A DNA stretch of 20,946 bases from Candidatus Omnitrophota bacterium (GTDB lineage: Bacteria > Omnitrophota > Gorgyraeia > Tantalellales > Tantalellaceae), in NCBI GenBank assembly GCA_043823375.1, contig JBDRAX010000031.1, positions 1 through 20,946 on the forward strand, given 5' to 3'. Numbering within the stretch: the stretch's first letter is position 1; the number at the start of each line of letters is the position of its first letter. This document shows positions 3,239-19,090 of the stretch, piece after piece. Under the pieces are notes generated by a model that saw only the letters and a list, made by a program, of their open reading frames with translations, was not told where the DNA came from and ran no database searches. The position numbers and the translations under genes are program-made.

Positions 3239-3636
3239 ACTCTTTGATTATCCTTTTTTTATATTTTCAGATTATATATTCTAACTTTATGTTTGAATAA
3301 TTCTCATTATACTACAAAATTGGCGGATTTGTTCTGCCTTTTTTCTTTTTTACGGAATCCGCGCGATACACACAGCCCTAATGATTTTCGTTTCAGGCCG
3401 ATTTCTTTCACCGCCCGTTTTCAGCAAAGAAATTTCCCGGAATAAATGCCGCCCAGACACGAAACGTATTACTTGAGTGGTTAGCGTACAAAGAATAGTA
3501 CTCGAGAAAACGAATTCATCAGGGGTTGCGATAGTCCTTAATTATGGAATCTGAAACGATAAGAGCCTCTCATTAAACAGAAGCTTTTGAGTTTAAGACC
3601 GCTGATTCGATAAAATATTCTTTCAGACCAAATTTT

Positions 3637-3954
3637 TTATTTTTTAGCCTCTTCCGGCTTTTTTGCTTCCTTCTCTCTATCAGACCGTAAAGTGCCTAAT
3701 ATGTATTTGTGCACTATACTTGTAATTAATGTTTGATATGGGATCCCTTCCTCCATTGCTCTGACCTGGATACCGATATAATCCTGTCCGGACATTCTTA
3801 TACTGATCCTTTTGTCTTTCTTTAAAGTGTTCTTCGCGTATTGGGCATACCGTTTGATCCTGGCTTCCTTATCACTTACTGATAGCCATTCCTCCTTTTC
3901 AAAAGACTCCAGAAGGTTCTTTTCCTCTTTTTCAAGCTTATGTTTCTTTTCCAT
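3637..3954 (-). CDS. brnA: BrnA-family antitoxin (type II TA, RHH/COG3514-like)
   Basis: 105-aa ORF located 2 bp downstream of the BrnT-like gene. The stretch KRISIRMSGQDYIGIQVRAMEEGIPYQTLITSIVHKYILG matches the conserved BrnA core (..ISIRL..DL..LK..A.E.GIPYQTLI.S.LHKY). It has a basic K/E-rich C-terminus. Confidence 0.8.
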   Translation of the reverse strand: MEKKHKLEKEEKNLLESFEKEEWLSVSDKEARIKRYAQYAKNTLKKDKRISIRMSGQDYIGIQVRAMEEGIPYQTLITSIVHKYILGTLRSDREKEAKKPEEAKK

Positions 3955-3956
3955 TT

Positions 3957-4232
3957 TTATTTCCCCTTTAAATATTCCTTTGTCATCTTCCTGCTGGGTA
4001 TTATAGTCTTGAGAAAAATACCCTGCTCATCTTCCACAAACGGCACATAGTAAACATATCCTTCCAGTTCAATTATAAAGAGCATCTCTTGATCATACTT
4101 TACAGCCGTATGTTCCCGGATATCCAAAATCTTACCATTTTCTATGCACGCAAGGATCTCATCGAAAGAAATTCCTCTTTCTTCCTTTAATTTCCTGTTT
4201 TTATCCTGATCCCATTGTATTCTTTTTTTCAT
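3957..4232 (-). CDS. brnT: BrnT-family toxin (DUF497, RelE/RNase-fold ribonuclease toxin)
   Basis: 91-aa ORF. N-terminus MKKRIQWDQDKNRKLKEERGISFDEI matches the BrnT signature (FEWDxxKNxxNxxKHGxxFxEA). The C-terminus ...IIPSRKMTKEYLKG matches the BrnT tail (IISARKATKKE..Y). The toxin-first, antitoxin-second order is characteristic of brnTA. Confidence 0.8.
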   Translation of the reverse strand: MKKRIQWDQDKNRKLKEERGISFDEILACIENGKILDIREHTAVKYDQEMLFIIELEGYVYYVPFVEDEQGIFLKTIIPSRKMTKEYLKGK

Positions 4233-4364
4233 ACACTGAGAGTATATATTATTTTTGTGCTAAATGTCAACATATTCGGCGCAAAAATTGCGGGAGTATT
4301 ACAGGGTTAATAGCATCATTTAAGATAGTGCCTGTTTCAAAAAAACAGAGGATATATTCCCATT

Positions 4365-5225
4365 TTACTGTTTTTTATGTAAAGGCAATACCCCTGCCAT
4401 TTCTCCGATCACATTTATAAGTTCCGTATCCTGCGGCACGACTATTTTCGCGTTATCTTTAAACGCGGTTTCCACGGCCTGTATTTTCCGCAGGATCTGG
4501 GCGTTCCCTATGAAATATTTTTCCGAGGCTTCGTTGACCAGCTTAATGGCTTCGGCTTCACCCTGCGCCTCAAGGACCTTGGCCTGTTTTACACCGTCCG
4601 CTTTTTTTATCTCCGCTCTCCTGGCGCCATCCGCCACTGTCTCTGTCGCTGTGGCGAAATCCACAGCCGCTATTTTTTCATTTTCCGCTTTTACGACTTT
4701 GTTCATTGTTTCCTGCACGTCTTTCGGAGGGTCTATTTCCTTCAATTCCGTCCGAACGATATCAATGCCCCAGCTGTGAGTTTCTTCGCACAGGGTTTTG
4801 TGCAGTTCCAGGTTTATCTTACCTCTTTCGCTGTTAGCGGATTTAAGCGTTAATGTCCCGATAATATTACGCAGTGTTGTCCTTGCCAGGTTCACGATCT
4901 GCCACTGGTAGTTGTTCACATTATACTGGGAATTCTTCACGTTTTCCTCATCGGACTTCACTTTAAAATACACCTGCGCGTCAACACGCGCGTTCAGGTT
5001 ATCATTAGTGATTATTTCCTGCGGTTCGGCGTCAACCATCTGTTCGGTTACGTTTACCATGTACAAAGCCTCAATGACCGGCATGATCCAGTGAAAACCG
5101 GGCGAGGCGAAACGGCTATACTTCCCGAGCCGTTCAATAAGGCCCCTGTGAGTAGGCCTGACTATGCGTATGCCGAGCAAAAACATGACCGCCGCTATCA
5201 GGAATAAACCGTAAATCACGCCCAT
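4365..5225 (-). CDS. SPFH/band-7 domain protein (stomatin/prohibitin/HflC-like), N-terminal membrane anchor
   Basis: 286-aa ORF. It has a single N-terminal transmembrane helix (MGVIYGLFLIAAVMFLLGI). The SPFH core is ...IVRPTHRGLIERLGKY...ITNDNLNARVDAQVYFKV...LRNIIGTLTL..., followed by an Ala/Glu-rich coiled-coil tail (EAQGEAEAIKL). Confidence 0.9.
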   Translation of the reverse strand: MGVIYGLFLIAAVMFLLGIRIVRPTHRGLIERLGKYSRFASPGFHWIMPVIEALYMVNVTEQMVDAEPQEIITNDNLNARVDAQVYFKVKSDEENVKNSQYNVNNYQWQIVNLARTTLRNIIGTLTLKSANSERGKINLELHKTLCEETHSWGIDIVRTELKEIDPPKDVQETMNKVVKAENEKIAAVDFATATETVADGARRAEIKKADGVKQAKVLEAQGEAEAIKLVNEASEKYFIGNAQILRKIQAVETAFKDNAKIVVPQDTELINVIGEMAGVLPLHKKQ

Positions 5226-5466
5226 TTTTTTCTCCTTCCGTTCTTTTTTGTATTGTCAAAAATTTAACCGCAGAGTTCACAGAGGTTCTTTAAAATAAAG
5301 AAATCAGGCAAAAATATACGCCCTCCCCTTTTTTCTGTTTTTCATAGTTAATCTTTCTAAGTTTAAATTCATAGCCAACTGCTTCTTCATAAATGCCCTC
5401 TAATAGCCCCCTCCGCGTTACCCATATTTATATTTCGCGATATAATAAAAAGTGTCCTGCTTCGCC

Positions 5467-5639
5467 CGTAGGGGCACATTGCATGTGCCCCAAGCCGCAT
5501 CGCGCCAATATTACACAGCTCCTTCCTTCAGATTGAATACTCCTTATTAACGCGTCACGCGGTGTCATGCGTCTTTTGATCGCTTGTTTTTTCAAGGCTT
5601 CTCCACGTGGTCAAAGGGCACATGCAATGTGCCCCTACG
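5467..5639. repeat. Pair of perfect 24-bp inverted repeats separated by 125 bp (5467-5490 CGTAGGGGCACATTGCATGTGCCC; 5616-5639 is its reverse complement), each containing its own 9-bp-stem hairpin GGGGCACAT-TGC-ATGTGCCCC; REP/BIME-like or small structured element
   Basis: Read directly from the sequence. It sits in a 616-bp gene-free interval (5226-5841) between the SPFH gene and the TMEM175-like gene. No ORF longer than about 40 aa lies between the arms. Confidence 0.6.
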
Positions 5640-5841
5640 ATGGATGTAAACATTCACGGATTTACGTCCGCGGATGTTTATTGGAACATTAAACCTCTTA
5701 CTGGATACTTATCTTGAGAACACAGAGCTTTTTTCTCTCTCCGCGGTTCCGTTCCATCCCTCTTTCTTTTAACTATTCTTTTATGTATTTTTTGGAAATA
5801 CCTTCTTTTTAAGCGCAGGTATATCTTTCTTCAACTTCTCT

Positions 5842-6474
5842 TCAATCCGCTGTCTCTATTGTTTCTTTTCTTTTCCATATAAGCAATATGAGCGGCACAA
5901 TAAAATACAGGATAGTACCGCCGCGCGGCCTGACCGCGGAAAGAGCTATCGCGCAGAGAGAAACACCAGGTATTATGAGGTTCCTCTTTTCATAAAACTT
6001 TATGGTCGCCCTGTCCATACTTTCATCCACCAGGCGGTGTTTATGTGAAGCGTATACCCAGTGAATAAAAAACACAAAACCCGCTATGAAAAGATTGACC
6101 TCAAAAAGAATAGAGGCCGCGCGCGTATGCCCGTAATCACTTACAAGTACCGTGCTAAAAGGTATAAGCGCGATAAACATCAGCCCCGCGATGTTCAGGA
6201 AAAGAAGCACAATATCAACACTCTTTATATAATGGAACTGGCGGTGGTGCTGAAACCAGAAAGCCCCGAGTATTACAAAACTCTCCACATAATGCAGGAA
6301 ATCCGGCCATAGGGCCATTAATGAACTCAGCAAATACTGTTCATCTATCGGTTTCGGCTGTTGGACCACGACTTCGAAACTCAGAACAAGGATCGTCATC
6401 GCTATCGCGAAGATCCCGTCACTGAGGGCTTCTATGCGGCTCGTCTTAAGGCCCGCCTTTGTATCACGATGCAT
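5842..6474 (-). CDS. DUF1211/TMEM175-family putative potassium channel
   Basis: 210-aa polytopic membrane protein. The N-terminal motif RIEALSDGIFAIAMTILVL corresponds to the TMEM175 pore-helix signature (RxxxFSDGxxAIxxTxL). Confidence 0.75.
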   Translation of the reverse strand: MHRDTKAGLKTSRIEALSDGIFAIAMTILVLSFEVVVQQPKPIDEQYLLSSLMALWPDFLHYVESFVILGAFWFQHHRQFHYIKSVDIVLLFLNIAGLMFIALIPFSTVLVSDYGHTRAASILFEVNLFIAGFVFFIHWVYASHKHRLVDESMDRATIKFYEKRNLIIPGVSLCAIALSAVRPRGGTILYFIVPLILLIWKRKETIETAD

Positions 6475-6604
6475 AATACTTCTCCCGGTAACTCTTTGTT
6501 AATTATGATATGAATAGATAACCTCTCCAGTACTTTATACCGGACGATCCGGACAATAGATAGTATACCTTAAGATCGCGCGTTAACAAGACAGAGTGAT
6601 AATT

Positions 6605-7393
6605 TTACGAAGGCCGTTTACCAGAGCGTTCTTCCGGCATTCTCCCCAGAAGCCGCAGTAAGCCGTCGAGAATGGTAACAGGATGCGGAGGGCATCCCGG
6701 GATATAAAGGTCTACGGGAATAATGGGATCCACCCCATTCGATACTTCGGGATGGCCGATAAAAGGACCGCCTGAAATAGCGCAGCTTCCGACTGCGATC
6801 ACTATTTTTGGATCAGCGACAGCGTCATATGTTTTGATAAGGGCCGGGCGCATATTCGCCGTAACCGGGCCCGTAATAATAAGCCCGTCCGCGTGCCTGG
6901 GAGAAGCCACGATCTGGATACCGAACCTTCCGAGGTCGAAAACCACGGTGGTCAGCACGTTTATATCCAGTTCACACCCAGTGCACCCTCCGGCGCTTAC
7001 CTGCCGGAGTTTCAAGGACCTGCCGAACACGCGTTTCATTTTTCCCTGAAGGGATTCCGCGAGTTTCAATATACTGTCCTCAACAAGAAGGTCCGAGCGT
7101 TCTCTCACGGCAAGGCGCCAGTCAGCGGTAAACCCGAGAGCCGCGTGAGGGCAGGCTTTAACGCACTCCCCGCAGAACAGGCATTTACCCAGATCCATAC
7201 GCACTTTACCTTTTTCAGTTTTTTCAAGCGCCCCGACCGGGCAAACTTCTATACATTCAGAGCACGCTTTCCTGCACCTTATGGTATCTATTTCAGGCAC
7301 ACCCCTCAACCTCGCCGGTATAGCCGGGGGCCCGTAAGGGAAATCAACCGTCCTGTTTCCCTGCCTGATCCTTTCATATAAAGTTTTGAACAT
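6605..7393 (-). CDS. Fused 2x[4Fe-4S] ferredoxin + NuoB/HycG-like small subunit of a group-4 hydrogenase/complex I-related module (HyfH-HyfI-like fusion)
   Basis: 262-aa ORF. The N-terminal half has two ferredoxin motifs, CRKACSECIEVCP and CLFCGECVKACP. The C-terminal half has the NuoB/PsbB-type cluster ligands GGCTGCELD ... VGSCAISGG ... IPGCPPHP. The gene is the last in the operon. Confidence 0.85.
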   Translation of the reverse strand: MFKTLYERIRQGNRTVDFPYGPPAIPARLRGVPEIDTIRCRKACSECIEVCPVGALEKTEKGKVRMDLGKCLFCGECVKACPHAALGFTADWRLAVRERSDLLVEDSILKLAESLQGKMKRVFGRSLKLRQVSAGGCTGCELDINVLTTVVFDLGRFGIQIVASPRHADGLIITGPVTANMRPALIKTYDAVADPKIVIAVGSCAISGGPFIGHPEVSNGVDPIIPVDLYIPGCPPHPVTILDGLLRLLGRMPEERSGKRPS

Positions 7394-7405
7394 AATGTTT
7401 ACTCC

Positions 7406-8932
7406 TTATAGATCATGGCCGCAATAAGAGAGGTTAAAGCTTTTATTGCATAACGGGAAATTTGATATTTCTTCGCCGCGTAAAACCATTTCCAGAGCGG
7501 CCCAGTTATGAAAAGAAGGGTCCACTATCTTATACGCCTTAAATTTTCCGTCCGGACCGGTTAAAACAGTATGGCAGATCTCACCCCTCCACCCTTCGAC
7601 AAGAGATACTGTGATCGCGTCCGGTTCAAGTCTGCCGGTTTTCACGCGGATATCATCCCCTGGAAGCGCGCTCATCTGTTCCTTAATAAATTCCACGGAC
7701 CTCTGCGCTTCAAGCCAGCGGACATAAGCCCTCGCGAAAACGTCACCTGTGGGGTATGTGGATACGGGGATATGCCCGAGCCTGTATATGCCGCTGGGAA
7801 AATCAAAGCGCGCGTCACGCTCTATGCCCGAGGCGCGGGCCGCTACTCCTACTATGCCGAGCGACTCCGCGGTTTCGCGGGTTAGAGAACCCGTCCTTTC
7901 AAACCTCTCCACGCAGGAAGGAGAATCCCACATGAGATTGACCGCTCCGGCCGTATCCCTGAAGATCTCATCCAGTTTTTTTAATAACTCCCCCGTAAGA
8001 ACACTGTCAACATCGAACTCAACACCTCCGGGTGAAACCATACCCCTGCCGAAACGGTTACCGCACACAAGCGCCGTCAGGTTCAGAAAATCCCCGCGGA
8101 GGCGCCCGCAGTAAGAAGCCGTGGGCAGATACGCTACGTCATTAGCCAGCGCCCCGAGATCCCCCGTATGATTGGCAAGCCTTTCAAGTTCAAGCATCAC
8201 ACCCCGCAGGACCTGCGCCCTGGCAGGTATCCCGCACCGCGAAAGAGATTCTACCGCCTGCGCGTACGCTGACGCGTGGGCTATGGAAGTATCTCCCGCG
8301 AGCGTCTCCATGTAACGCACTGTCCTTTTATCCGGCCCGCCCGACAAAGCCCGTTCAATACCGCGGTGCTGATAACCGAGAGAAATTTCAAGGTTATACA
8401 CATGTTCCCCATGGCACTGGAAGCGGAAATGCCCGGGTTCTATTACCCCCGCGTGCACAGGGCCTACTCCGACTTCGTGGATCGCGGTACCTTCCATCCT
8501 GAAAAAATCTGTTACCCCCGGGAGCCTTTCTTCACCGCTTTTCCGGCCCCACGCGTCATATCCCGCGCGGTAACAGTCATGAAACCGTAAAGGTTTCAGC
8601 CAGGGATGGCCTTCGGGGATAATGCCCCACTGTTCGGCGATCTCACGTTCGAACCGCGCGAACTGGGCGCAGTCATTCGTAAAAGAAGTATATTTATTTT
8701 CGACGTCCGACGCGGCTATAAAAATCTTTCCTTCAGTGTCTTTAGCAAGGACCGCGTAAAGACGCGCGTGAGCGTTCCCGCCCGGCACAGCGAAAAAAGA
8801 AGCCGCGCGGCCCGAATCTTTTATAATGCCGAGGACTATATCCCTGAATTCACTGAAACCGGTAACGGGCAGATCCCTTAAAAGCGCCCGTTCTCCATTA
8901 CGAAGCATCAAAAAAGGTTTCTTCTCCGTCAT
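7406..8932 (-). CDS. HycE/NuoCD-like large subunit (NuoC-NuoD fusion architecture) of an energy-converting hydrogenase-related complex; apparently lacks the NiFe-ligating cysteine motifs
   Basis: 508-aa ORF. A NuoC-like N-terminal third is followed by the NuoD/HycE core (GVGPVHAGVIEPGHFRF...LGYQHRGIERA...). At the position of the L1 motif (ER-x-C-G-x-C-xxx-H) the sequence reads RYMETLAGDTSIAH, with Ala and Thr in place of the two Cys. The C-terminus ...FPLCNKSFNLSYCGHDL has no DPCxxCxxH/R motif. It overlaps the next gene by 4 bp. Confidence 0.85.
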   Translation of the reverse strand: MTEKKPFLMLRNGERALLRDLPVTGFSEFRDIVLGIIKDSGRAASFFAVPGGNAHARLYAVLAKDTEGKIFIAASDVENKYTSFTNDCAQFARFEREIAEQWGIIPEGHPWLKPLRFHDCYRAGYDAWGRKSGEERLPGVTDFFRMEGTAIHEVGVGPVHAGVIEPGHFRFQCHGEHVYNLEISLGYQHRGIERALSGGPDKRTVRYMETLAGDTSIAHASAYAQAVESLSRCGIPARAQVLRGVMLELERLANHTGDLGALANDVAYLPTASYCGRLRGDFLNLTALVCGNRFGRGMVSPGGVEFDVDSVLTGELLKKLDEIFRDTAGAVNLMWDSPSCVERFERTGSLTRETAESLGIVGVAARASGIERDARFDFPSGIYRLGHIPVSTYPTGDVFARAYVRWLEAQRSVEFIKEQMSALPGDDIRVKTGRLEPDAITVSLVEGWRGEICHTVLTGPDGKFKAYKIVDPSFHNWAALEMVLRGEEISNFPLCNKSFNLSYCGHDL

Positions 8933-10407
8933 ATTCCCCCCAGCACGCGAGCGGCCTGTTCAAGGACCCTCTGAAGCGCTCCCGGCATGTATACTCCGAG
9001 AATAAGCGCGATCAGGCATAATATGGAACCCGGGGCAGTTAACATAAAACTCTCCCTGACTTTACCGCGGGAGAACTCTTCGGACGGATCACCCTGCGCC
9101 ATATTAAGCACTATGTTCGCCATACTTATGAAAATAACGGATAAAAGAATGATATAAGCCGCGGCAAAAAAGATATGCCCGCTGTCAAGCGCGCCTTTAA
9201 GTATTATGAATTCACTTAAAAAAATGCCGGATGGAGGTGTCCCTGTCACCGCTAAAAAACCGGCGATCCATAACACGCCCGAATACGGGATGACTTTCAC
9301 CGCTCCACGTATATCCCGTATGTTTTTTGACCTGTATACGGCAAGTATGTTCCCCGCCGTAAAGAACAGCACGGCTTTTATCAGAGAATGGTTTATGACG
9401 TGAAACATCGCGCCGAACACGGCGCCTCCGCCTATTCCAGCGCCAAGAGCCATGATCCCCATGTGTTCGACGCTTGAATACGCGAGCATCCGCTTAAAAT
9501 CCGTCTGTCCCGCGATGAATACCGCGGCGAACGCCATGGAAACTATCCCGAATACCATAAGGAGCTGCCCGCTGAACTCAGCCTGGCCCGCGGCGCACGA
9601 AACCTGATGCGCCCTGAGGATGCCGAGAAAAGCGCAGTTAAGAAGCGCCCCTGAAAGCAGGGCCGAAACGACCGAAGGCGCCTCACTGTGCGCGTCCGGA
9701 AGCCATGTGTGCATCGGGGCAAGGCCCATTTTAGTACCGTAGCCCACGATCAGAAAGATAAACGCCACTTTTAAGCGCGGGACATTAAGCCCCGCTCCCT
9801 GTTTTATCATATCCCCGAGAAGAAGGGGCGTATATCCCTCCGGGGCGTTATTCACAGAAACCGCGAGGAACAGATTTCCGATAAGGGCCAGCGCGATCCC
9901 GACTGAACAGATCAGTAAATATTTCCAGGCGGCTTCAAGGGAACGGTGGTGCCTGTGAAAATATATCAAAGGCGCGCTCACAAGAGTGGTAGTTTCCATG
10001 GCCACCCACAAAACACCCATGTGCCGGCTTACCGTGACAAGGGTCATCGCTGAAAGAAAGATCAGGAGGCATCCGGTAAATACCGCTTCAGGCGCGTCAC
10101 TGAAAATAAAACCTTCTTCAATATCCTTCCTCCCGCCGTGCCCTTCTCTTCTGAGGTACGCTGTCCCGTATATCGACGCGGCCAGAAAAAGCAGGCTTAT
10201 CACGCTTAAAAAAAGTTTCCCGAGAGGGTCGACGCAAAACCATTTTCCGGCTTTTACGCCTTCCGGCGGAAAAAACCATACAGCCGCTGAAAGGGACGCG
10301 TGGATAACGGCGGCTGAAATAAACAGCGCCCGGCGCGGCCCGTCATGCCGGATAAGAAACGCCAGGATACCCGCTATAAAAGGCACTCCTATCAGGGCGA
10401 AAATCAT
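8929..10407 (-). CDS. NuoN/HyfF-like proton-translocating antiporter-type membrane subunit (Mrp/complex I antiporter family)
   Basis: 492-aa polytopic membrane protein with the family hallmark ...GYGTKMGLAPMHTWLPDAHSEAPSVVSALLSG... It overlaps its neighbours by 4 bp on both sides, consistent with translational coupling. Confidence 0.85.
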   Translation of the reverse strand: MIFALIGVPFIAGILAFLIRHDGPRRALFISAAVIHASLSAAVWFFPPEGVKAGKWFCVDPLGKLFLSVISLLFLAASIYGTAYLRREGHGGRKDIEEGFIFSDAPEAVFTGCLLIFLSAMTLVTVSRHMGVLWVAMETTTLVSAPLIYFHRHHRSLEAAWKYLLICSVGIALALIGNLFLAVSVNNAPEGYTPLLLGDMIKQGAGLNVPRLKVAFIFLIVGYGTKMGLAPMHTWLPDAHSEAPSVVSALLSGALLNCAFLGILRAHQVSCAAGQAEFSGQLLMVFGIVSMAFAAVFIAGQTDFKRMLAYSSVEHMGIMALGAGIGGGAVFGAMFHVINHSLIKAVLFFTAGNILAVYRSKNIRDIRGAVKVIPYSGVLWIAGFLAVTGTPPSGIFLSEFIILKGALDSGHIFFAAAYIILLSVIFISMANIVLNMAQGDPSEEFSRGKVRESFMLTAPGSILCLIALILGVYMPGALQRVLEQAARVLGGI

Positions 10408-11081
10408 TTCAATACCCCCTGTGAATCCGAACGCCAGTCTCCAAGCATTGAAAGTTCATCCGTGTCTATATGGTCGAACTCCCGGTTTATATGGAAAATA
10501 GCTATACCCATGACGAATACCGCCACAAAAATATCCAGCAGTATGCCCAGTTCCACTAAAACAGGCTGTTCAAGAAGCATAATAACGCTTAAGCAGTATA
10601 TACCGTTCTCAAGGATCAGGTACCCTATTACCTGTGTCAACGCCTTCCGGCGGGTGACAATAATAAAAAGGCCCGTCAGTATGGTGGAAAAAGGAACAGC
10701 CGCGGCAAACCCTGACAGCCATTGCCGATCAGGCAATGGGAGCGCCGACGCGAACCAGAACGAAACGCCGAGCGCCACAACTCCCATTAACAGAGAAACC
10801 GGATAACCTATCAGAGGTTCTATTTCCCGGCTCACATCCGCTTCCCTCAGAGAACGTGAAAGGAGGCGCGGGAATACTATGCCTTTTATCGCGACCGTGA
10901 CAGCGGCGAAAATCATTATCCGGGGCATAAGGCCCCCCTCATGTACAGCTACGGGTAACAGCCCCACTGCTATCCCGTGAAAAGCCGCCACCCTGATACA
11001 CGTAAGAAGGCGGCTGGAAGAAAGCAGCGTAAGGTTCAGCAGCACTATCACGAACATTATGATCTCATACCATTCTTTCAT
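10404..11081 (-). CDS. HyfE-like small membrane subunit with a C-terminal NuoK-like region
   Basis: 225-aa ORF with 6-7 predicted TM helices. The C-terminal LTQVIGYLILENGIYCLSVIMLLEQP resembles the NuoK/HyfE conserved segment (..ENG..). Its position between the NuoH-like and NuoN-like genes matches hyf operon order. Confidence 0.6.
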   Translation of the reverse strand: MKEWYEIIMFVIVLLNLTLLSSSRLLTCIRVAAFHGIAVGLLPVAVHEGGLMPRIMIFAAVTVAIKGIVFPRLLSRSLREADVSREIEPLIGYPVSLLMGVVALGVSFWFASALPLPDRQWLSGFAAAVPFSTILTGLFIIVTRRKALTQVIGYLILENGIYCLSVIMLLEQPVLVELGILLDIFVAVFVMGIAIFHINREFDHIDTDELSMLGDWRSDSQGVLK

Positions 11082-11085
11082 AATA

Positions 11086-11997
11086 TCACCTTATCTGAAC
11101 GAGTAAAGCGAGCACCGAAAACGCCAGAGCGCACACAAGCATCATCGGAACGTTATTCATCCGAAGCCTCGCCATAACAGATTCGACCATACCTGTGAGG
11201 ACCGAAAGCGCGGCCATACCCGCGGTGAAACAGAACATATTAACCCAGATATTGGCGGACCACCTGTTTACCAGTATGCCCGTAAACAGCGCCCCCAGAA
11301 CCCAGAATTTAAGCGACGCCCCGTAAAGTATAAAAGCGAGGTCAGGCCCGCAATGATCAAGCGCCATCACTTCATGTATCATCGTAAGCTCAAGGTGAGT
11401 ATTGGGGTCATCTACCGGTACTCTCGAGTTTTCCGCGAGAAAAACAAGAAAAACAGCCGACGCCGAGAACGCCAGAAGAGGGCCGTTATGCGCCCACATT
11501 TCCGGACTGAACGCGGAATACACGGCTGAAAGCGATATTGTCCCCGCCTCGCGCGCGAGGGCCGCCAAAGCTATTAAAAACGCGGGTTCCGCCAGAACCG
11601 CGAACTGTATTTCCCTGCCAGCGCCCATCCCTTCGAAACTCGACCCCGTATCAAGGGCCGCCAGTACCGTAAAAAACCTGGCTATACCGAATAAATAACA
11701 CAACAATATCAGGTCTCCGTCAAAAGATATAAGCCCGCGGGACGTTCCATATGGAATGATCAATAATGCCATTATCACCGCCGAAAGCCCCGCGACAGGC
11801 CCCGCGCGGAAGATCCATGTCGTAGTGCGGCTGTAAACGGCTGATTTATTGAGCAGTTTATATATATCGTAATAAAGCTGAAGAAGCGGCTGGCCCCTGC
11901 GCCCCGCGAAAAAGGCTTTAGTACGGTTTATGATCCCCATTAAAAGCGGCGCGAAGATAAAAGCCATGAGTATATTTATCAGAATAAACTTTGTCAT
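11086..11997 (-). CDS. HycD/HyfC/NuoH-like membrane subunit (complex I subunit 1 family)
   Basis: 303-aa ORF. N-terminal LMGIINRTKAFFAGRRGQPLLQLYYDIYKLLNK matches the NuoH/HycD signature (G.INR.KA..QGR.GP.LLQPY.DL.KL..K). Confidence 0.85.
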   Translation of the reverse strand: MTKFILINILMAFIFAPLLMGIINRTKAFFAGRRGQPLLQLYYDIYKLLNKSAVYSRTTTWIFRAGPVAGLSAVIMALLIIPYGTSRGLISFDGDLILLCYLFGIARFFTVLAALDTGSSFEGMGAGREIQFAVLAEPAFLIALAALAREAGTISLSAVYSAFSPEMWAHNGPLLAFSASAVFLVFLAENSRVPVDDPNTHLELTMIHEVMALDHCGPDLAFILYGASLKFWVLGALFTGILVNRWSANIWVNMFCFTAGMAALSVLTGMVESVMARLRMNNVPMMLVCALAFSVLALLVQIR

Positions 11998-13979
11998 TTA
12001 AACTGCCCCATTTTCCAGAAAAGAAGCGCAAGAAGAGTTATAACGATATACAGAACATAATACTGTACCCTCCCGTGCTGTATCCATTTCAGTTTCGCGG
12101 AAAGGCCTCTTATAAATTTCGAAAACGGCTCATACAGCTTTACCCGGAAAATATCGGGTGTCTCAACGGATAACTCGCCCCGCCGGGGAAATAAACCGCG
12201 GGGGCGCGAAACCCTGACAACGGACCTTAAGAAAAACCTGAATTGCCCTGAAAGCGGCTGGGAGAAAGATGAGCCCGTGTATTGCATACGGGGAGAACCC
12301 GCCGCGTAACCGCAATCCCATGTAACAGCCTTCTTCACCCCGCGTTTCGCCAGGAGCCTGATACGTATAACCGCGAGAATAGCGGCAATAGCCGAAAAAG
12401 CGAACGCTGAAGCCGCTATATATTTTAAACACCCTGATGCCCCGGATAAAACGGCGCTCGAAGGACGAGGAGGCAAGCCGGTTATACCTGAAACTACTCC
12501 GCCCAGAACATATATCAACGCCGGCGCGGCCGGTACGACGGCAAAACAGCATACTGTTAGAATAATAACAGGCGCGAGCATGGAGGCCTTCGCCTCATGA
12601 GCGCCGGCTATCCGGCTTTCGCGCGGTTCCCCCAGAAAAATGATCCCGAACGCTTTTGTGAAACACGCGGCGGCAAGGCCCCCGGTAAGCGCGAGAGCCG
12701 CTATAATACCGAAAAACACAACGGCACTGCCGTTCTGAAGCAAAGCGCCGTTTAACGCCCCTGAAAAAATAAGGAATTCACTCATAAACCCGTTTAAGAC
12801 CGGCATGCCGGAAACAGCCGCGGCGCCCGCCAGGAAACAAACACCTGTCAAAGGCATTTGTTTCAATAACCCTCCCATCCTGTCCATATTCCTTGTGCCG
12901 GCGGCACGCGCCAGGGACCCGGTACTCATAAAGAGCAGGCCCTTGAACATGGAATGGTTTATCACGTGTAAAAGCGCGCCGCAGAAACCAAGTACAGCGA
13001 GTACGGGAACCTCGAGCGCCATGCCGATAATACCCGTACCGATCCCCATAGCGATAATGCCCGCGTTCTCAATACTGCTGAAAGCGAGAAGCCTTTTGAT
13101 ATCCTCCTCGGCAAGAGCGAAAAGTATCCCCAGAACAGCCGACACAAGCCCTGTGCCCACCAGGAGCCACCCCCACCACACGGCCGGTTCCCCCGTAAAA
13201 GTCAGGATACGCAGAAGCCCGTATATCCCTGTTTTTATCATTACCCCGGACATAACCGCGGATACATGGCTGGGTGCCGCGGGATGCGCTTCAGGCAGCC
13301 AAACATGCATGGGCATGAACCCCGCTTTTGTGCCGAATCCTATTACCGCGAGAATAAAAATAACGGACGGCAGGATCTTTCCCTGAACGCTGAACGCCGA
13401 AAAATCGAAAGACCCGTTACTTTTTCCGAGCAGGATAAAAAGTACGAATAAAAACGCCGCGCCTATATGCGTTGCTATAAGATATGTTAATCCCGCTGAC
13501 CTGACTTCCTGTTTCTCATTTTCAAAAGTAACCAGAAAAAAGGACGATACCGACATAATCTCCCAGGACACAAGAAAAAGCACAGCGCCCCGGGCAATAA
13601 CCGTCATAACCATGCTGGCAATAAGGAGATTGAAAAAAAACCACGAATATCCGGTCCGCTTCTTCCCGTACCAGGACGCGATATACCCGCCGCCATAAAC
13701 AGCGGCTAAAGCTGAAATAAAAAATATCGGCAAAAGGAACAACGCCGACAGGCCGTCGGCCTCTATATGAAAAGAACCATACGGGATCTTCCATGGAAGG
13801 TTTAAAGACAACACTTCATTTTTCAAAAGCACCGAAACCGCGGGGATAATGCCGACAACGCACGCGGCTATATTCCCTGCCACGGCAATATATGTGGACC
13901 TGTACGGAGCCCTGTCAATAAGTAAAGCGATCAGCCCGCTTACAACCAGCAGGATCACCGCCGCTAAAATGTAAATCAT
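11994..13979 (-). CDS. HyfB/HycC/NuoL-like large antiporter-type membrane subunit
   Basis: 661-aa polytopic membrane protein. Antiporter-family core ...GFGTKAGFMPMHVWLPEAHPAAPSHVSAVMSGVMIKTGIYGLLR... with an extended C-terminus as in HyfB/NuoL. First gene of the operon. Confidence 0.85.
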   Translation of the reverse strand: MIYILAAVILLVVSGLIALLIDRAPYRSTYIAVAGNIAACVVGIIPAVSVLLKNEVLSLNLPWKIPYGSFHIEADGLSALFLLPIFFISALAAVYGGGYIASWYGKKRTGYSWFFFNLLIASMVMTVIARGAVLFLVSWEIMSVSSFFLVTFENEKQEVRSAGLTYLIATHIGAAFLFVLFILLGKSNGSFDFSAFSVQGKILPSVIFILAVIGFGTKAGFMPMHVWLPEAHPAAPSHVSAVMSGVMIKTGIYGLLRILTFTGEPAVWWGWLLVGTGLVSAVLGILFALAEEDIKRLLAFSSIENAGIIAMGIGTGIIGMALEVPVLAVLGFCGALLHVINHSMFKGLLFMSTGSLARAAGTRNMDRMGGLLKQMPLTGVCFLAGAAAVSGMPVLNGFMSEFLIFSGALNGALLQNGSAVVFFGIIAALALTGGLAAACFTKAFGIIFLGEPRESRIAGAHEAKASMLAPVIILTVCCFAVVPAAPALIYVLGGVVSGITGLPPRPSSAVLSGASGCLKYIAASAFAFSAIAAILAVIRIRLLAKRGVKKAVTWDCGYAAGSPRMQYTGSSFSQPLSGQFRFFLRSVVRVSRPRGLFPRRGELSVETPDIFRVKLYEPFSKFIRGLSAKLKWIQHGRVQYYVLYIVITLLALLFWKMGQFK

Positions 13980-14025
13980 ATCATCTTACCTGTATTTTGT
14001 TCCGCGTATCCCGCGTCAGTTCTTT

Positions 14026-14706
14026 TCACGCCTTACGGATATTGTTTTCAACGCGTTCCATCTCCCTCAGAATTGTTTCCCGGTCACCGTGGCCCAAAAT
14101 AACCCCGCTCAGCTCCGGATCCTTCAAAGTGAACATCAGCCTGGACAAAAGGTACAAATGCGCACGCGCGGTAGGGCTGACAAGCATAAAAAGGCAATGC
14201 ACGGGCTTACCGTCAAGCGCGCCGAAATCAACGGGGCTGTCGAGAAAACACAGCGATATGACCGAATACGGGACATCCAGCACTATCGGGTTCCTTACAT
14301 GCGGAATAGCGATCCCGTCCCCTATACCCGTTGAACTCAGATTCTCCCTCGCCAGGAGCACCTTAAAAAGAAAATCCCTGTCCACATCTTCAGGAAAATG
14401 TATAATATCGACTATATTCCTTAAGACCGACTCCCTGTCAGAGCCTCCCACACGGTAATATATCCCGCCTTTCCTGAGCGCCTCCGCCAGTCCCGCCACA
14501 TCCACAGTTCCTTCACCCGGGTCACTGAACATCTCCGGAGAGATAACAACCTTATTCGCCCCGGCCCAGTCAAGAAGTTCTGTCTTATTAAACCTGTACT
14601 GATTGTGCAGTTTATATACAGGTATGACCTTTTTCTTTATCCACCTGTATATTGTCCGTTCCGACACATTAAGCAATTTCGATACATCCTGCAAAGTAAG
14701 CTGCAT
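14026..14706 (-). CDS. Transcriptional regulator: N-terminal MerR/excisionase-type HTH (HTH_17-like) fused to a PTS EIIA type-2 (EIIA-Ntr/Fru-like) domain
   Basis: 226-aa ORF. HTH segment LTLQDVSKLLNVSERTIYRWIKKKVIPVYKL. C-terminal EIIA-2 domain carries the phospho-acceptor His motif STGIGDGIAIPHVR and a conserved ...HCLFMLVSP... block. Its stop lies 46 bp upstream of the first Ehr-like operon gene on the same strand. Confidence 0.8.
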   Translation of the reverse strand: MQLTLQDVSKLLNVSERTIYRWIKKKVIPVYKLHNQYRFNKTELLDWAGANKVVISPEMFSDPGEGTVDVAGLAEALRKGGIYYRVGGSDRESVLRNIVDIIHFPEDVDRDFLFKVLLARENLSSTGIGDGIAIPHVRNPIVLDVPYSVISLCFLDSPVDFGALDGKPVHCLFMLVSPTARAHLYLLSRLMFTLKDPELSGVILGHGDRETILREMERVENNIRKA

Positions 14707-14897
14707 AGATCCTTTAACCCCTTGTATTCGTTTTAATCAAAAACAATGACAAATCATATATTTATCTGACATTATACGACATATATGCCTTTATGTCAAT
14801 ATTTGTCTTGCTCGAGATAATTAACTCTTTTTCTTACGGGTAAGAACAAGCACCGGTTCATACACGCATTGGAGTTTTGTACAATTAAAGTAAATAT

Positions 14898-14953
14898 TTG
14901 ACAATCCACCATTGATAAGTATACTTAATTAACAATAATGTTAACTAAGTATA
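14898..14953 (+). promoter_or_regulatory. Predicted abiEi promoter with overlapping inverted-repeat operator
   Basis: TTGACA at 14898-14903, a 16-bp spacer, then TATACT at 14920-14925. An alternative is TTGATA at 14912-14917 with AATAAT at 14934-14939. A 14-bp inverted repeat, TATACTTAATTAAC at 14920-14933 and GTTAACTAAGTATA at 14940-14953 (one mismatch), overlaps the -10 elements and ends 10 bp before the ATG. The AbiEi family is typically described as autoregulatory at such repeats. Confidence 0.4.
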
Positions 14954-14962
14954 TTTATCAAT

Positions 14963-15550
14963 ATGAGAAAACTTAAAAACATAACCAAATTATATTTCGG
15001 ATATAAAGATATCTCCGTGGCTCTCGGGATAACAGATAATTCCGCGAAAGTTACAGCTAACCGGTATGTGGAGAGCGGGTATCTGGTTCGCGTCAAGAGA
15101 AATGTTTATGTCCTTTCAGAAAAATGGGAATATCTGGAAAAGGAAGAAAAATTCCTGATAGCAAACATTATTCAGGTACCTTCATACATCTCTCTTATGA
15201 CAGCGCTGGATTATTATGAGATAACTACACAGATACAACGAGGGTTCATTGAAAGTATTTCCATAAAAAGGACAAAAGAATCGGAGATCAATGGGCTGAA
15301 TTTTGTGTACAGCAAAATAAATAAACGGTTATATTTCGGTTTTGAAAAGAAACAGGATTTTTTTATAGCTTCGCCGGAAAAAGCTTTTCTTGACGCCTTA
15401 TATCTTATGTCGCTCGGAAGATACAAACTTGATATTTCTTCCATTGACATGAATAAGCTGGATAAAGGCAAAATAAGCGCCCTTCTAAAAGTTTTTCCGA
15501 AAAAAACCGAAAGGATTTACTCCAAGTATGGATATTCTGAAAAAACATGA
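14963..15550 (+). CDS. abiEi: AbiEi-family antitoxin/transcriptional regulator (type IV TA, COG5340-like)
   Basis: 195-aa ORF. The N-terminal wHTH-like region ...GYLVRVKRNVYVL matches the AbiEi_4 pattern (G.L.RV.RG.Y.L). The conserved middle block is IQVPSYISLMTALDYYEITTQ. It overlaps the downstream AbiEii gene by 23 bp. Confidence 0.8.
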   Translation: MRKLKNITKLYFGYKDISVALGITDNSAKVTANRYVESGYLVRVKRNVYVLSEKWEYLEKEEKFLIANIIQVPSYISLMTALDYYEITTQIQRGFIESISIKRTKESEINGLNFVYSKINKRLYFGFEKKQDFFIASPEKAFLDALYLMSLGRYKLDISSIDMNKLDKGKISALLKVFPKKTERIYSKYGYSEKT

Positions 15551-16181
15551 ACTTTTCGAGATCGAGGTTCTTGAAAAATTGAACAGCGGTAAATTCCTCG
15601 AACCGCTTGTATTCGGCGGAGGAACCATGCTGAGGCTTTGCCATGAACTTAACAGATACTCCGTTGACCTTGATTTCTGGTTTATCCGGCGGATAGCCTT
15701 TGATGACTATTTCACTAAACTTAAGGATTTTCTCGAAAAGGAATATGAAATCACGGACGCGTGTATTAAACACTACACGCTTTTATTTGAACTGCGCTCC
15801 GGGAAATATCCCAAAAGGATGAAAATAGAAATAAGAAAACAGGAAAAGAAATTCGACTTTCAGGAAAGAATAGCGTTTTCCAGATATGACGTTAAACAGG
15901 TCATTTTAAAAGTACACACCCTTGAACAGACAATGAAAAATAAAATAGAAGCGGCCCTCCAAAGAAAGGAAATAAGGGACTGCTTTGACATAGAGTTCCT
16001 GTTAAAGCGAGGAATCGCTTTTAATGCCGAAGAAGGGGTCATTGAAAGATATAACGACTTACTGACGAGTTTCAGCGACAAAGATTTTAAAGTAACTCTC
16101 GGGTCGATACTTGACAGCGCGGAAAGAAAGTATTATATTCAAAACAAATTCAGCTATACTCTCCGGAAACTGGGCCTGTAA
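15528..16181 (+). CDS. abiEii: AbiEii/AbiGii-family nucleotidyltransferase toxin (DUF1814)
   Basis: 217-aa ORF with the nucleotidyltransferase motif LVFGGGTMLRLCHELNRYSVDLDFWF (GG[GT]xL...R.S.DLDF). The AT-rich composition, about 35% GC, is distinct from the flanks. Confidence 0.85.
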   Translation: MDILKKHELFEIEVLEKLNSGKFLEPLVFGGGTMLRLCHELNRYSVDLDFWFIRRIAFDDYFTKLKDFLEKEYEITDACIKHYTLLFELRSGKYPKRMKIEIRKQEKKFDFQERIAFSRYDVKQVILKVHTLEQTMKNKIEAALQRKEIRDCFDIEFLLKRGIAFNAEEGVIERYNDLLTSFSDKDFKVTLGSILDSAERKYYIQNKFSYTLRKLGL

Positions 16182-16299
16182 GAATTTTCTTTTTATTACG
16201 CTGTCCCGCACCGATCACATGAGCATGATCCGGTATTCCATGATAAATAATATCTCATTCTTATATTGGAAATTTTCGGTGAAAAAAAACAGAAAAAAA

Positions 16300-16632
16300 T
16301 CACTCTCTTCCGGACTGGCATTTCACGCAGTACCTGGCCGATGGCATGGCGCGGAGCCTTTCTGTGTTTATTTCTTTACCGCACGCGAGGCATTTCCCGT
16401 AAGTGCCCTCCTCTATCCTGGCAAGAGCATCTTCAATAAGGTTTATTTCTTTTTCTTCGAGAAAGCTCTCCTCCTCGATCACGTCCGCTTCCTCGCGTAA
16501 AGACAGCGCCTCAGCGGAATTACCGCTCAGGCCTTCTCTCAGTTCATTGTCCAGAATTTTCATTTCTTTACGGAGCTCCCTGTGCCGGGCTCTCATTTTA
16601 TCTTCCAGTTCTTTTATTATCTCCGGATCCAT
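16300..16632 (-). CDS. DksA/TraR-family C4-type zinc-finger protein
   Basis: 110-aa ORF. It has an acidic coiled-coil N-terminal part and a C-terminal CLACGKEINTERLRAMPSARYCVKCQ (CxxC-x17-CxxC) motif. A good Shine-Dalgarno AAGGAG lies 7 nt upstream of the ATG. Confidence 0.8.
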   Translation of the reverse strand: MDPEIIKELEDKMRARHRELRKEMKILDNELREGLSGNSAEALSLREEADVIEEESFLEEKEINLIEDALARIEEGTYGKCLACGKEINTERLRAMPSARYCVKCQSGRE

Positions 16633-16688
16633 TACTTCTCCTTCCCTGTTATTTTCCGATCCCGGCGCATGACGAAAATTTTACGGCT

Positions 16689-17006
16689 TTACTGCCGCTT
16701 GAACATCATGGCGGCGTCTTCGGAATTCATATCACTCAAGATTGTAATATTTTTAACCCTTCCCGCGGTAAAATGAAGTATCATATGATCTGTTTCGTCT
16801 ATTTTATAGAGCGCTTTTTTACGCGGCACAAAAAGAAACCCGCGCTTCATATCCTCAACCGAAGCCGGAGAGCCGTAACGTTCGTTCACCTCTTTTTCCG
16901 TCATCCCCGCCCGGATCTCCATTTTTTCATAGTCATCTCCATAAGAAACCGCGCCGCAAAAAAAGAGCATTAAAGCCGTAATAAAAACCACTGCCTTTTT
17001 TTTCAT
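16689..17006 (-). CDS. Small secreted protein of unknown function (about 105 aa) with N-terminal signal peptide
   Basis: The ORF track gives 16689..17111, but that start would overlap the upstream MscS gene. The internal start MKKKAVVFITALMLFFCGAVSYG at 17006 gives a signal-peptide-bearing product and a 16-bp gap to the MscS stop. The start choice is an inference. Confidence 0.5.
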   Translation of the reverse strand: MKKKAVVFITALMLFFCGAVSYGDDYEKMEIRAGMTEKEVNERYGSPASVEDMKRGFLFVPRKKALYKIDETDHMILHFTAGRVKNITILSDMNSEDAAMMFKRQ

Positions 17007-17022
17007 CCCGTCCACCCGCCTT

Positions 17023-18429: not shown

Positions 18430-18563
18430 ATTTTTCACTCTCCTCGTTAAGGCTTATATTCGCGTGTTGTTGTTATTTATTATAATACCGCTTTTATCCC
18501 TCGAATACAAGAACTCGAAGACCGTTCGTCCCGGCTTGAGGGGGATCTTACACGAGAAAGAAC

Positions 18564-18631
18564 GGATAAAAGGGGACAGTCCACGCGGCGGGGCGCATAC
18601 TAAGCGCGCGGGGGACAGTCCCCTTTTATCC
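18564..18631. repeat. Long imperfect inverted repeat: GGATAAAAGGGGACAGTCC (18564-18582) pairs with GGACAGTCCCCTTTTATCC (18613-18631), giving a 19-bp stem with 1 mismatch and a GC-rich 30-nt loop. An outer CCGTTC/GAACGG pair (18522-18527 / 18560-18565) sits just upstream of it
   Basis: Read directly from the sequence. No U-tail follows on either strand, so it is not a canonical terminator. It lies in a 650-bp gene-poor interval upstream of the MscS start on one strand and of the MNT remnant on the other. Confidence 0.5.
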
Positions 18632-18699
18632 TCCGCGTCAGCGCGGAATTGTTATTCCCGCTTGCAAAATTCGTAATATAACGATAAACTAAAAAGGCT

Positions 18700-18864
18700 A
18701 TGGAAAACAAAATAATTTCGATTGACGGGATAAAAAAAGAAATGTCGCTTGATAAAGACGTTTCCTGCGTATATTTATTCGGTTCATTCGCCTCGGAAAA
18801 AGTTCATTCTTCGAGTGATGTGGATATAGCGATCCTTCTGGGAAATAAGTTCCCGGAGTATTAA
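18700..18864 (+). pseudogene. Truncated MNT-type (Pol-beta superfamily) nucleotidyltransferase / MntA-like antitoxin fragment (54 codons)
   Basis: ATG at 18700. The translation MENKIISIDGIKKEMSLDKDVSCVYLFGSFASEKVHSSSDVDIAILLGNKFPEY* contains the minimal-nucleotidyltransferase signature hGS...x(8-10)..SDhDhhh. It stops after about half the usual domain length of 95-130 aa. No HEPN/HepT partner follows. Confidence 0.45.
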
Positions 18865-18884
18865 GGGCGAATGATTATTCGCCC
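18865..18884 (+). other. Perfect hairpin GGGCGAAT-GATT-ATTCGCCC immediately after the stop codon of the truncated nucleotidyltransferase ORF
   Basis: 8-bp stem and 4-nt loop, read directly. The nearest T-run begins about 25 nt downstream, so terminator function is uncertain. It may instead mark the truncation or insertion junction. Confidence 0.3.
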
Positions 18885-19090
18885 CTACAAAGAACATCTC
18901 ATGCCTTATTTTTTACGAGATCAACATTTCTTTTTTCAAGCTATCTGCTTTATGTCAAAACCCTTATGAATATTATCTCAATATTAACCTAACACCTATG
19001 ACACGCAGATGCGCCCCTGCAGAGGCGTAATGTTTGAAGATCTTTCGCCTGCCGCGGCGCGGGTTTACCGGGCGTATGTATCGCCGTAAT

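Follow-up and report, generated by a model that had tools for sequence, protein, structure and literature searches.

Complexes of the Ehr class (Ech-hydrogenase-related or energy-converting hydrogenase-related) were named in Geobacter sulfurreducens, where the genes GSU0739-0745 encode EhrA-1, A-2, B, C, D, L, and S (PMC7894505). According to Coppi 2005 and Marreiros 2013 (as cited in PMC4378227, PMC6349859, PMC7894505), the class is characterized by a large subunit that is related to group-4 hydrogenases and lacks the cysteines binding the NiFe center. Ehr is extremely common and has been a recognized unknown for about 20 years; it is listed as uncharacterized in the literature (PMC4378227, PMC6349859, PMC10284858), and a 2026 paper considers it non-functional (PMC13194489). 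The locus analyzed here comes from a Candidatus Omnitrophota metagenome-assembled genome (MAG), in which it lies on a contig of 20,946 bp, and this whole stretch of DNA is referred to as the window. Open reading frame (ORF) calling placed six ehr genes head to tail on the minus strand at 6605-13979, exactly where an earlier reading of the sequence alone (the sequence-only reading) had put them. Their products show the features of the class, namely a large subunit without NiFe cysteines (EhrL), which is preceded by NuoL-like EhrA, NuoH-like EhrB, HyfE-like EhrC, and antiporter-like EhrD and followed by EhrS. The encoded complex is of the Ehr type, a known class of uncharacterized function, and belongs to the superfamily of group-4 hydrogenases and complex I, although judged from its residues it should be unable to hold a NiFe center. 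The conserved unit consists of seven genes and not six: it reaches 14706, with a promoter extending to 14799, and while the six-gene operon of the sequence-only reading stands, the seventh gene (HTH-EIIA) and the promoter/operator region had been missed. The chances are about even that this seven-gene Ehr cassette (promoter/operator, HTH-EIIA, EhrA-B-C-D-L-S) encodes a reversible, ferredoxin-linked ion pump controlled by the phosphotransferase system (PTS), whose electron acceptor is not H+ and most likely a quinone.

The catalytic-subunit homolog EhrL was aligned by MAFFT with HycE, HyfG, and NuoCD from the Escherichia coli K-12 record and compared by phmmer with all PDB sequences, among which E. 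coli HycE ranked first (E = 2.8e-40), followed by MbhL of Pyrococcus furiosus and Nqo4 of Thermus thermophilus. In the MAFFT alignment the four NiFe ligands of HycE (C241, C244, C531, and C534) correspond to A212, T215, S502, and G505 of EhrL. Neither the L1 motif RxCGxCxxxH nor the L2 motif DPCxxCxx[HR], each of which contributes two Cys ligands, is present: Ala and Thr occupy the positions of the former pair, and Ser and Gly those of the latter. The quinone-binding residues of complex I are also replaced, the headgroup Tyr (Nqo4 Y87 = NuoCD Y273) by G213, a position with Gly in 94% of the family, and the His of the beta1-beta2 loop (Nqo4 H38 = NuoCD H224) by I164. NuoCD D325 is kept as D265, the proton-delivery Glu in the beta1-beta2 loop is retained as E165 (= MbhL E21 = HycE E193; conserved in 91%), and the Ehr-specific residues D214 and D471-P472 are present. 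The protein ends in ...NLSYCGHDL, without the extension that HycE loses by cleavage during Ni-dependent maturation. Because the NiFe cysteines, the Tyr/His pair, and the C-terminal extension are all absent, EhrL is, by its sequence, neither a NiFe hydrogenase nor a canonical Q module of complex I. The sequence-only reading had claimed that the large subunit lacks all NiFe cysteines at L1 and L2 as well as the quinone-site layout of NuoD; both claims were borne out, and a check of the alignment for CxxC pairs hidden at L1 or L2 or for a NuoD His/Tyr pair found neither. The AlphaFold model of EhrL is confident overall (predicted local distance difference test, pLDDT, 84.6; predicted template modeling score, pTM, 0.88), and its best fold match in the PDB is HycE (7Z0S; TM-score 0.83, 26% identity), with no closer solved structure. 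C495, C504, and H506 near the C-terminus were considered as a replacement metal or disulfide site; as a general feature this was rejected, since the three residues are invariant only in the close clade and variable outside it (C/I/N, C/S/A, and H/N/F/V, respectively).

EhrS contains exactly 12 Cys, all of them ligands of three [4Fe-4S] clusters. Two ferredoxin-type clusters are ligated by C40, C44, C47, C51, C71, C74, C77, and C81, and the proximal cluster by C137, C140, C204, and C234, which align with the corresponding cysteines of HycG and HyfI (CxxC...C...C). Each of the 12 residues is kept in at least 65 of 72 homologs, and the earlier statement that the small subunit retains all four proximal-cluster cysteines and the ferredoxin domain two full clusters agrees with the alignment to HycG. 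The proximal motif GGCTGCE has the CxxC form of hydrogenases and the length found in HycG; the tandem-Cys (CC) ligation of cluster N2, which reads SCCY in NuoB, does not occur in EhrS.

Domain matches of all six products (Pfam, NCBIfam) bear out the hyf/hyc-like gene order that had been read from the sequence, and the three 4-bp overlaps noted at that time are ATGA start/stop overlaps at 11994-97, 10404-07, and 8929-32. EhrA contains Proton_antipo_M and scores 604 bits against the hydrogenase-4 subunit B model, just below the cut-off of that model; EhrB matches NADHdh (NuoH), EhrC a HyfE-like model (77 bits), EhrD Proton_antipo_M and the hydrogenase-4 subunit F model (388 bits), EhrL Complex1_49kDa and, weakly, Complex1_30kDa and NiFeSe_Hases, and EhrS an Fer4 dicluster and Oxidored_q6. 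The residues used for pumping by NuoL, NuoM, and NuoN are kept in both antiporter-like subunits, and the earlier claim that such subunits are coupled to the redox module also stands. In EhrA these are the Glu of transmembrane helix (TM) 5 (E140), the TM7 Lys (K218), H338/H342/K346 in TM11, and the TM12 Glu (E401), with E138, K226, H336/H340/K344, and E399 at the same positions of EhrD; the TM7 Lys is absent from E. coli HycC. The C-terminal WDCGY segment of EhrA can be aligned to HyfB and HycC. EhrB keeps the charged network of NuoH and HycD, and its TM5-6 loop is 100% conserved, with the invariant residues E189, R192, D196, D197, H201, E203, H208, E209, D214, and H215, of which the three His are Ehr-specific. 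Conserved membrane carboxylates of EhrC are E158, E177, and D183. Genes for NuoA and NuoJ were found neither in the cassette of the window nor in related loci.

A HMMER search of 1.84 billion cluster representatives (50% clusters) returned 873 proteins at E <= 1e-30, and a signature of EhrL was derived from those of the best 150 matches that are full-length (89 sequences). The NiFe cysteines are absent in 85 of these 89 representatives, and the common signature is E-x2-[AS]-G-D-[ST] ... S-Y-x-G-x-D-L, comprising E209, [A/S]212, G213, D214 (92%), [S/T]215, D471-P472, S502 (98%), G505 (100%), D507, and L508; G505 is invariant across the 85 Ehr-type representatives. Only four representatives (P0233, P0240, P0259, and P0270; ~36-38% identity) keep all four Cys and are the nearest true hydrogenase relatives. 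In a rough neighbor-joining tree without support values they fall inside one Cys-less subclade, a grouping that, if real, would mean that the cysteines were lost more than once. EhrL proteins of different phyla share 60-66% identity, the mean column identity in 50 sequences is 75%, and more than 8000 matches from more than 15 phyla have at least 60% identity to the EhrL of the window. A scan of one genome per species revealed at least 598 EhrL relatives, the best 80 of which include Verrucomicrobiota, Planctomycetota, Lentisphaerota, Omnitrophota, Geobacterales (with the cultured Geomonas limicola), Acidobacteriota (Geothrix paludis), Gemmatimonadota, Spirochaetota, Chlamydiota, Fibrobacterota, Actinomycetota, Alphaproteobacteria, and others. 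Many of the hosts are aerobic, and both the matches obtained here and published data (PMC6688271, PMC10284858) show the family to be frequent in lineages that are aerobic or respire with quinones.

The gene order EhrA-B-C-D-L-S is conserved across loci, and 15 of 57 loci in a first tally had a second EhrA copy, like the Geobacter cluster described in the literature. One Lentisphaeria locus (L001, 11644-12006) has a small 23S_rRNA_IVP-domain gene inserted between EhrL and EhrS. The flanks of the operon differed in every individual context look-up, and none of 80 loci encodes a dedicated donor module in the vicinity; the idea of a donor module adjoining the operon, as in FDH-Ehr (PMC6349859), was rejected, with no flanking family occurring in more than 11 of ~84 loci. 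Some genomes carry tandem paralogous Cys-less clusters (L044, about 2268-12280; L050, about 4879-20578), in which a window-like 'A-G-D-T ... Y-C-G' type is combined with a distant 'S-G-D-S ... Y-S-G' type of ~37% identity, and this suggests the existence of functionally distinct Ehr subfamilies.

The seventh gene is located directly upstream of EhrA and codes for a protein of 226 aa with HTH_17 and PTS EIIA_2 domains (Pfam). Of 62 evaluable loci, 47 have an equivalent gene next to the first EhrA gene, and the two often overlap by 4 nt. In a reverse search, the homologs of HTH-EIIA were as many and as conserved as those of EhrL, and in four of four context look-ups they headed a complete Ehr operon in otherwise unrelated neighborhoods. 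Variant layouts exist: in six Verrucomicrobiota loci (L057, L059, L063, L069, L075, and L079) a diverged HTH-EIIA gene lies between EhrA1 and EhrA2, with overlapping stops and starts, and in two Geobacter loci (L031 and L050) HTH-EIIA and EhrA-1 form a divergent pair; even in these the gene always comes directly before an EhrA gene. The predicted fold of the EIIA domain is that of PtsN/EIIA(Ntr) (Foldseek TM-score 0.80; best match 3urr, also 1a6j). It carries the phosphorylatable-His motif GDGIAIPH(136)VRNP, in which GDGIAIPH136 is invariant in 46 sequences. Upstream of the gene, a promoter with a perfect 12/12 match to the sigma-70 consensus (TTGACA-17 nt-TATAAT) was identified at 14799-14771 (-), and its -10 element is bracketed by three TGTC sites (TGTCG 14781-14777, TGTCA 14771-14767, and TGTCA 14751-14747) at spacings of 10 and 20 nt. 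A corresponding arrangement recurs across phyla, with a -35 TTGACA followed by TGTC(C) direct repeats (TGTC(C)-N6-7-TGTC(C)) of 10-11-bp period. This repeat has 23 matches in 19 of 39 regions upstream of HTH-EIIA, compared with 0.16 expected in shuffles, and a density of 3.93/kb there versus 0.0195/kb over 2.9 Mb of locus sequence (~200-fold enriched). HTH-EIIA is predicted, with reasonable confidence, to bind these repeats and is a probable PTS-controlled autoregulator of the operon. No description of the linkage between HTH-EIIA and Ehr or of the operator was found in the searchable literature. Control by the PTS might tie expression to the phosphoenolpyruvate/pyruvate or carbon/nitrogen state, which would be sensible if ferredoxin is reduced by pyruvate:ferredoxin oxidoreductase.

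According to the favored reading of the cassette, reduced ferredoxin would dock at the NuoI-like half of EhrS, electrons would run through the three [4Fe-4S] clusters to the proximal one, and an acceptor other than H+ would be reduced at the junction of EhrL, EhrS, and EhrB. In the pocket at this junction the four thiolates are swapped for a polar set ([A/S]212, D214, [S/T]215, S502, and G505) with E165 kept, and the acceptor would most probably be a membrane quinone in a non-canonical site. The change in redox or protonation state would then be relayed to the EhrB/EhrC channel via the beta1-beta2 loop of EhrL, the TM5-6 loop of EhrB, and the C-terminus of EhrA, which may be regarded as a three-loop coupling system, judging from their counterparts in MBH, MBS, and complex I (PMC7684303), and the two intact antiporter-like subunits would move H+ or Na+. 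Such a machine is expected to be reversible, and in aerobes the ion gradient could drive the making of reduced ferredoxin. HTH-EIIA would set expression, probably by binding the TGTC(C) repeats at the -10 element in response to PTS phosphorylation of H136.

The components of this mechanism differ in strength. That Ehr pumps ions is very likely. Ferredoxin is the probable redox partner because the three-cluster chain is intact, the entry domain is NuoI-like, and no donor module is encoded; the lack of such a module in the 80 loci fits a soluble donor. The assignment of quinone as acceptor is tentative and falls somewhat short of an even chance. An acceptor of higher potential is favored because two to three intact pump modules need more driving force than electron transfer from ferredoxin to H+, the free energy per two electrons being 12 kJ/mol for MBH and 42 kJ/mol for MBS (PMC8165549), and quinone is the obvious candidate since the hosts are mostly respiratory. 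A proton-coupled reduction would be in line with the proton-delivery Glu that is kept and with the invariant Asp that is new. All Ehr subunits have been detected in G. sulfurreducens, with larger amounts on formate (PMC7894505). Ehr may possibly represent a fourth catalytic type of the complex I superfamily besides the H+-reducing hydrogenases, the sulfane-reducing MBS, and the quinone-reducing complex I, i.e., a PTS(Ntr)-controlled, ferredoxin-linked, reversible pump with a carboxylate/hydroxyl pocket (E165, D214, S/T215, S502, D471) in place of NiFe, a proposal that is less likely than not. If it is true, the pump would supply or consume low-potential ferredoxin at the cost or gain of an ion gradient in aerobes, among them Nitrospira, NC10, methanotrophs, Verrucomicrobia, and Planctomycetes.

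Several points speak against the quinone-reducing pump. Ehr has none of the canonical quinone ligands, and its proximal motif is the CxxC of hydrogenases and not the CC of complex I. Ehr-like complexes, which may represent another subclade, have been reported in Riflemargulisbacteria, which lack quinone synthesis (PMC6349859). The pocket loops of the EhrL model (155-166 and 494-508) have pLDDT <50, and the model was for this reason not used for pocket geometry. The HTH-EIIA gene is absent from 15 of 62 loci, and its binding to the TGTC(C) repeats is a prediction. The serious rivals are an MBS-like complex with a soluble acceptor and a redox-gated antiporter. With the same architecture and coupling, the acceptor could be a soluble or sulfur compound (polysulfide or similar) that receives its electrons at the proximal cluster or close to it, in the manner of P. 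furiosus MBS, which sets the precedent of a NiFe-less superfamily member reducing a substrate that is neither a proton nor a quinone (PMC7684303). The equivalents of H38 and Y87 are absent from Ehr too, but MBS keeps two of the four Cys and has a shortened motif, a three-Cys proximal cluster, and no equivalent of MbhL E21 (PMC7684303), whereas Ehr has none of the four Cys, a four-Cys motif of HycG length, and a retained E165. Many hosts, moreover, are aerobic, and a soluble acceptor is considered unlikely. Slightly less likely still is a redox-gated cation/proton antiporter, in which the Fe-S chain would sense the ferredoxin state without net turnover and the EIIA-like protein would regulate ion homeostasis. 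The oxygen-rich pocket (Asp, Ser, Thr) resembles a cation or water site, the HTH-EIIA gene stays next to EhrA even between two EhrA copies or in a divergent pair, and in E. coli, K+ systems are under the control of EIIA(Ntr) proteins. A further point for the antiporter may come from Methylocystis sumavensis, in which all seven genes of a 'group 4f' hydrogenase-related cluster, possibly of the Cys-less Ehr type, were upregulated 16-22-fold at pH 5 while H2 went undetected (bioRxiv 10.1101/2025.08.29.672306); the Cys ligands are not given in that paper, and the published motif of the cluster is absent from the Ehr sequence sets compared here. However, three clusters with 12 ligands kept across phyla would be a high price for sensing alone, the coupling loops and the proton-delivery Glu show the conservation of turnover enzymes, and the ion-channel genes beside the operon in the window are not conserved at other loci.

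Three further explanations are far less probable. A hydrogenase that still evolves or consumes H2 by an unconventional metal ligation would account for HycE being the closest solved structure, for the several second-sphere hydrogenase residues that are kept, and for the label in public annotation, but it is close to refuted by the loss of all four ligand Cys, with G505 invariant and S502 at 98%, and by the lack of a C-terminal maturation extension and of any hyp gene within the window. The view that Ehr is a decaying, non-functional hydrogenase relic, as stated for G. sulfurreducens (PMC13194489), takes account of the lost catalytic metal site and is contradicted by conservation throughout: 60-66% identity across phyla and 75% mean column identity, conserved cluster ligands, pump residues, and coupling loops, a regulator and an operator that are kept along with the gene order, and proteomic data in which every subunit was detected (PMC7894505). 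Equally improbable is a reduced, NDH-1-like complex I with a canonical quinone site. It would be in keeping with the Pfam and NCBIfam matches to NuoD, NuoB, NuoH, and NuoI and with the retention of NuoCD D325 as D265, yet the alignments contradict it, as Tyr is changed to Gly213 and His to Ile164, the proximal motif is CxxC and not CC, NuoA and NuoJ are missing, and all subunits score nearer to Hyc/Hyf than to Nuo. A ferredoxin-linked ion pump with an acceptor other than H+ is the reading retained here, and the positions of its genes and regulatory elements are listed in Table 1.

Table 1. Coordinates of the Ehr cassette and its upstream elements in the window.
Feature	Position	Strand	Evidence
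EhrA: HyfB/NuoL-like antiporter-like subunit, 661 aa	11994..13979	(-)	Pfam, NCBIfam, alignments
EhrB: NuoH/HycD-like membrane anchor, 303 aa	11086..11997	(-)	Pfam, NCBIfam, conservation
EhrC: HyfE-like subunit, NuoK-like C-terminal half, 225 aa	10404..11081	(-)	Pfam, NCBIfam, conservation
EhrD: HyfF/NuoM-N-like antiporter-like subunit, 492 aa	8929..10407	(-)	Pfam, NCBIfam, alignment
EhrL: NuoC-like domain and HycE/NuoD-like large subunit, 508 aa	7406..8932	(-)	phmmer, MAFFT, AlphaFold/fold match
EhrS: NuoI/HycF-like 2x[4Fe-4S] domain and NuoB/HycG-like domain, 262 aa	6605..7393	(-)	Pfam, NCBIfam, cysteine alignment
HTH-EIIA: HTH_17 and EIIA(Ntr)/PtsN-like fusion, 226 aa	14026..14706	(-)	Pfam, fold match
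Promoter, sigma-70 type, upstream of HTH-EIIA gene	14771..14799	(-)	12/12 consensus match
Putative operator, three TGTC sites around -10 element	14747..14781	(-)	repeat enrichment upstream of HTH-EIIA genes

The remainder of the window contains toxin-antitoxin pairs on either side of the region, one BrnT/BrnA-like (CopG antitoxin and BrnT toxin; 3637-4232, -) and one AbiEi/AbiEii (14963-16181, +). A TMEM175-like K+ channel gene follows directly downstream of EhrS (5842-6474, -), and an SPFH/HflK-like gene (4365-5225, -) and a gene for an MscS-type channel whose N-terminal part is a long coiled coil (17023-18438, -) are nearby. A functional tie between Ehr and the TMEM175-like, SPFH, and MscS neighbors was rejected, this neighborhood not being conserved at other loci. 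An ORF of 593 aa (19091-20872, -) had no Pfam match at E <= 0.01, and domain searches detected neither hyp maturation genes nor a maturation endopeptidase within the 21-kb window. Recent horizontal transfer of the ehr genes, which the GC profile had suggested, was rejected as well: their G + C content at third codon positions (GC3; 0.54-0.58) equals that of the host genes, and the dips in the composition profile are caused by the low-GC flanking toxin-antitoxin genes and spacers.

The statement of the sequence-only reading that Cys-less Ehr complexes are known from surveys and have no characterized role still holds as of 2026 (PMC4378227, PMC6349859, PMC7894505, PMC10284858, PMC13194489); what it missed is the size of the family and the strength of its conservation. 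New here are the family signature, the evidence for strong constraint, and the seven-gene cassette with its regulator and operator. Public annotation does not name EhrL consistently ('hydrogenase', 'hydrogenase large subunit', 'NADH-quinone oxidoreductase subunit C', 'Ni,Fe-hydrogenase III large subunit'). The protein of the window matches an NCBI entry, 'MAG: hydrogenase', at 100% identity, and HTH-EIIA is called 'PTS sugar transporter subunit IIA'. Because Ehr is regularly labeled hydrogenase or NADH-quinone oxidoreductase subunit C, there may be errors in metabolic reconstructions. A survey of the Omnitrophota used PF00346, which EhrL matches, as marker of complex I (PMC10066038), and some of its 'complex I' calls may be Ehr. 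The signature, the regulator, and the operator provide experimental handles in cultured hosts (Geobacter, Geomonas, Geothrix), and a ferredoxin:quinone (or reverse) function, if true, would explain how the ferredoxin pool is linked to the membrane in many aerobes and anaerobes.

Among known systems, Geobacter Ehr has the same subunit set and order and a Cys-less large subunit. Homologs of the Geobacterales (Geomonas limicola, Pelobacter, and Geobacter MAGs) are 50-54% identical and have the same layout, but loci of the Geobacter type contain two EhrA genes and the window only one. E. coli hydrogenase-4 (Hyf) and hydrogenase-3 (Hyc), the latter being part of formate hydrogenlyase (7Z0S), share the HyfB-, HyfE-, and HyfF-like membrane subunits, the fusion of NuoC with the large subunit, and the CxxC proximal cluster, and provide the best match in both sequence and fold (HycE; E = 2.8e-40, TM-score 0.83). 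Unlike them, the complex of the window lacks the NiFe cysteines, the C-terminal extension, and the partners HycB/HyfA, HyfD, HycH/I, and FdhF, and the proteins HycF and HycG, which are separate in E. coli Hyc, are fused as EhrS.

P. furiosus MBS resembles Ehr in being NiFe-less, ferredoxin-driven, and ion-translocating and in having no quinone Tyr/His (PMC7684303). The features of the MBS/Mbx sulfane reductases are not those of the window complex: MBS has two of the four Cys, a three-Cys proximal cluster, no E21 equivalent, and an Mrp-type Na+ module (PMC7684303), compared with none of the four Cys, a four-Cys cluster, the retained E165, and no Mrp small subunits in Ehr. Complex I and photosynthetic NDH-1, which takes electrons from ferredoxin (PMC8165549), have in common with Ehr the logic of an L-shaped module, homologs of NuoB/C/D/H/I/K/L/M-N, the three terminal clusters, and the antiporter residues, whereas the Tyr/His ligands, the tandem-Cys motif of N2, NuoA, NuoJ, and NuoEFG are absent from the window complex. 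The C-terminal domain of HTH-EIIA, finally, has the fold (TM-score 0.80) and the active-site His motif of EIIA(Ntr)/PtsN, but differs from PtsN in being joined to a DNA-binding HTH_17 domain on its N-terminal side and in having its gene at the front of a respiratory-type operon or within one.

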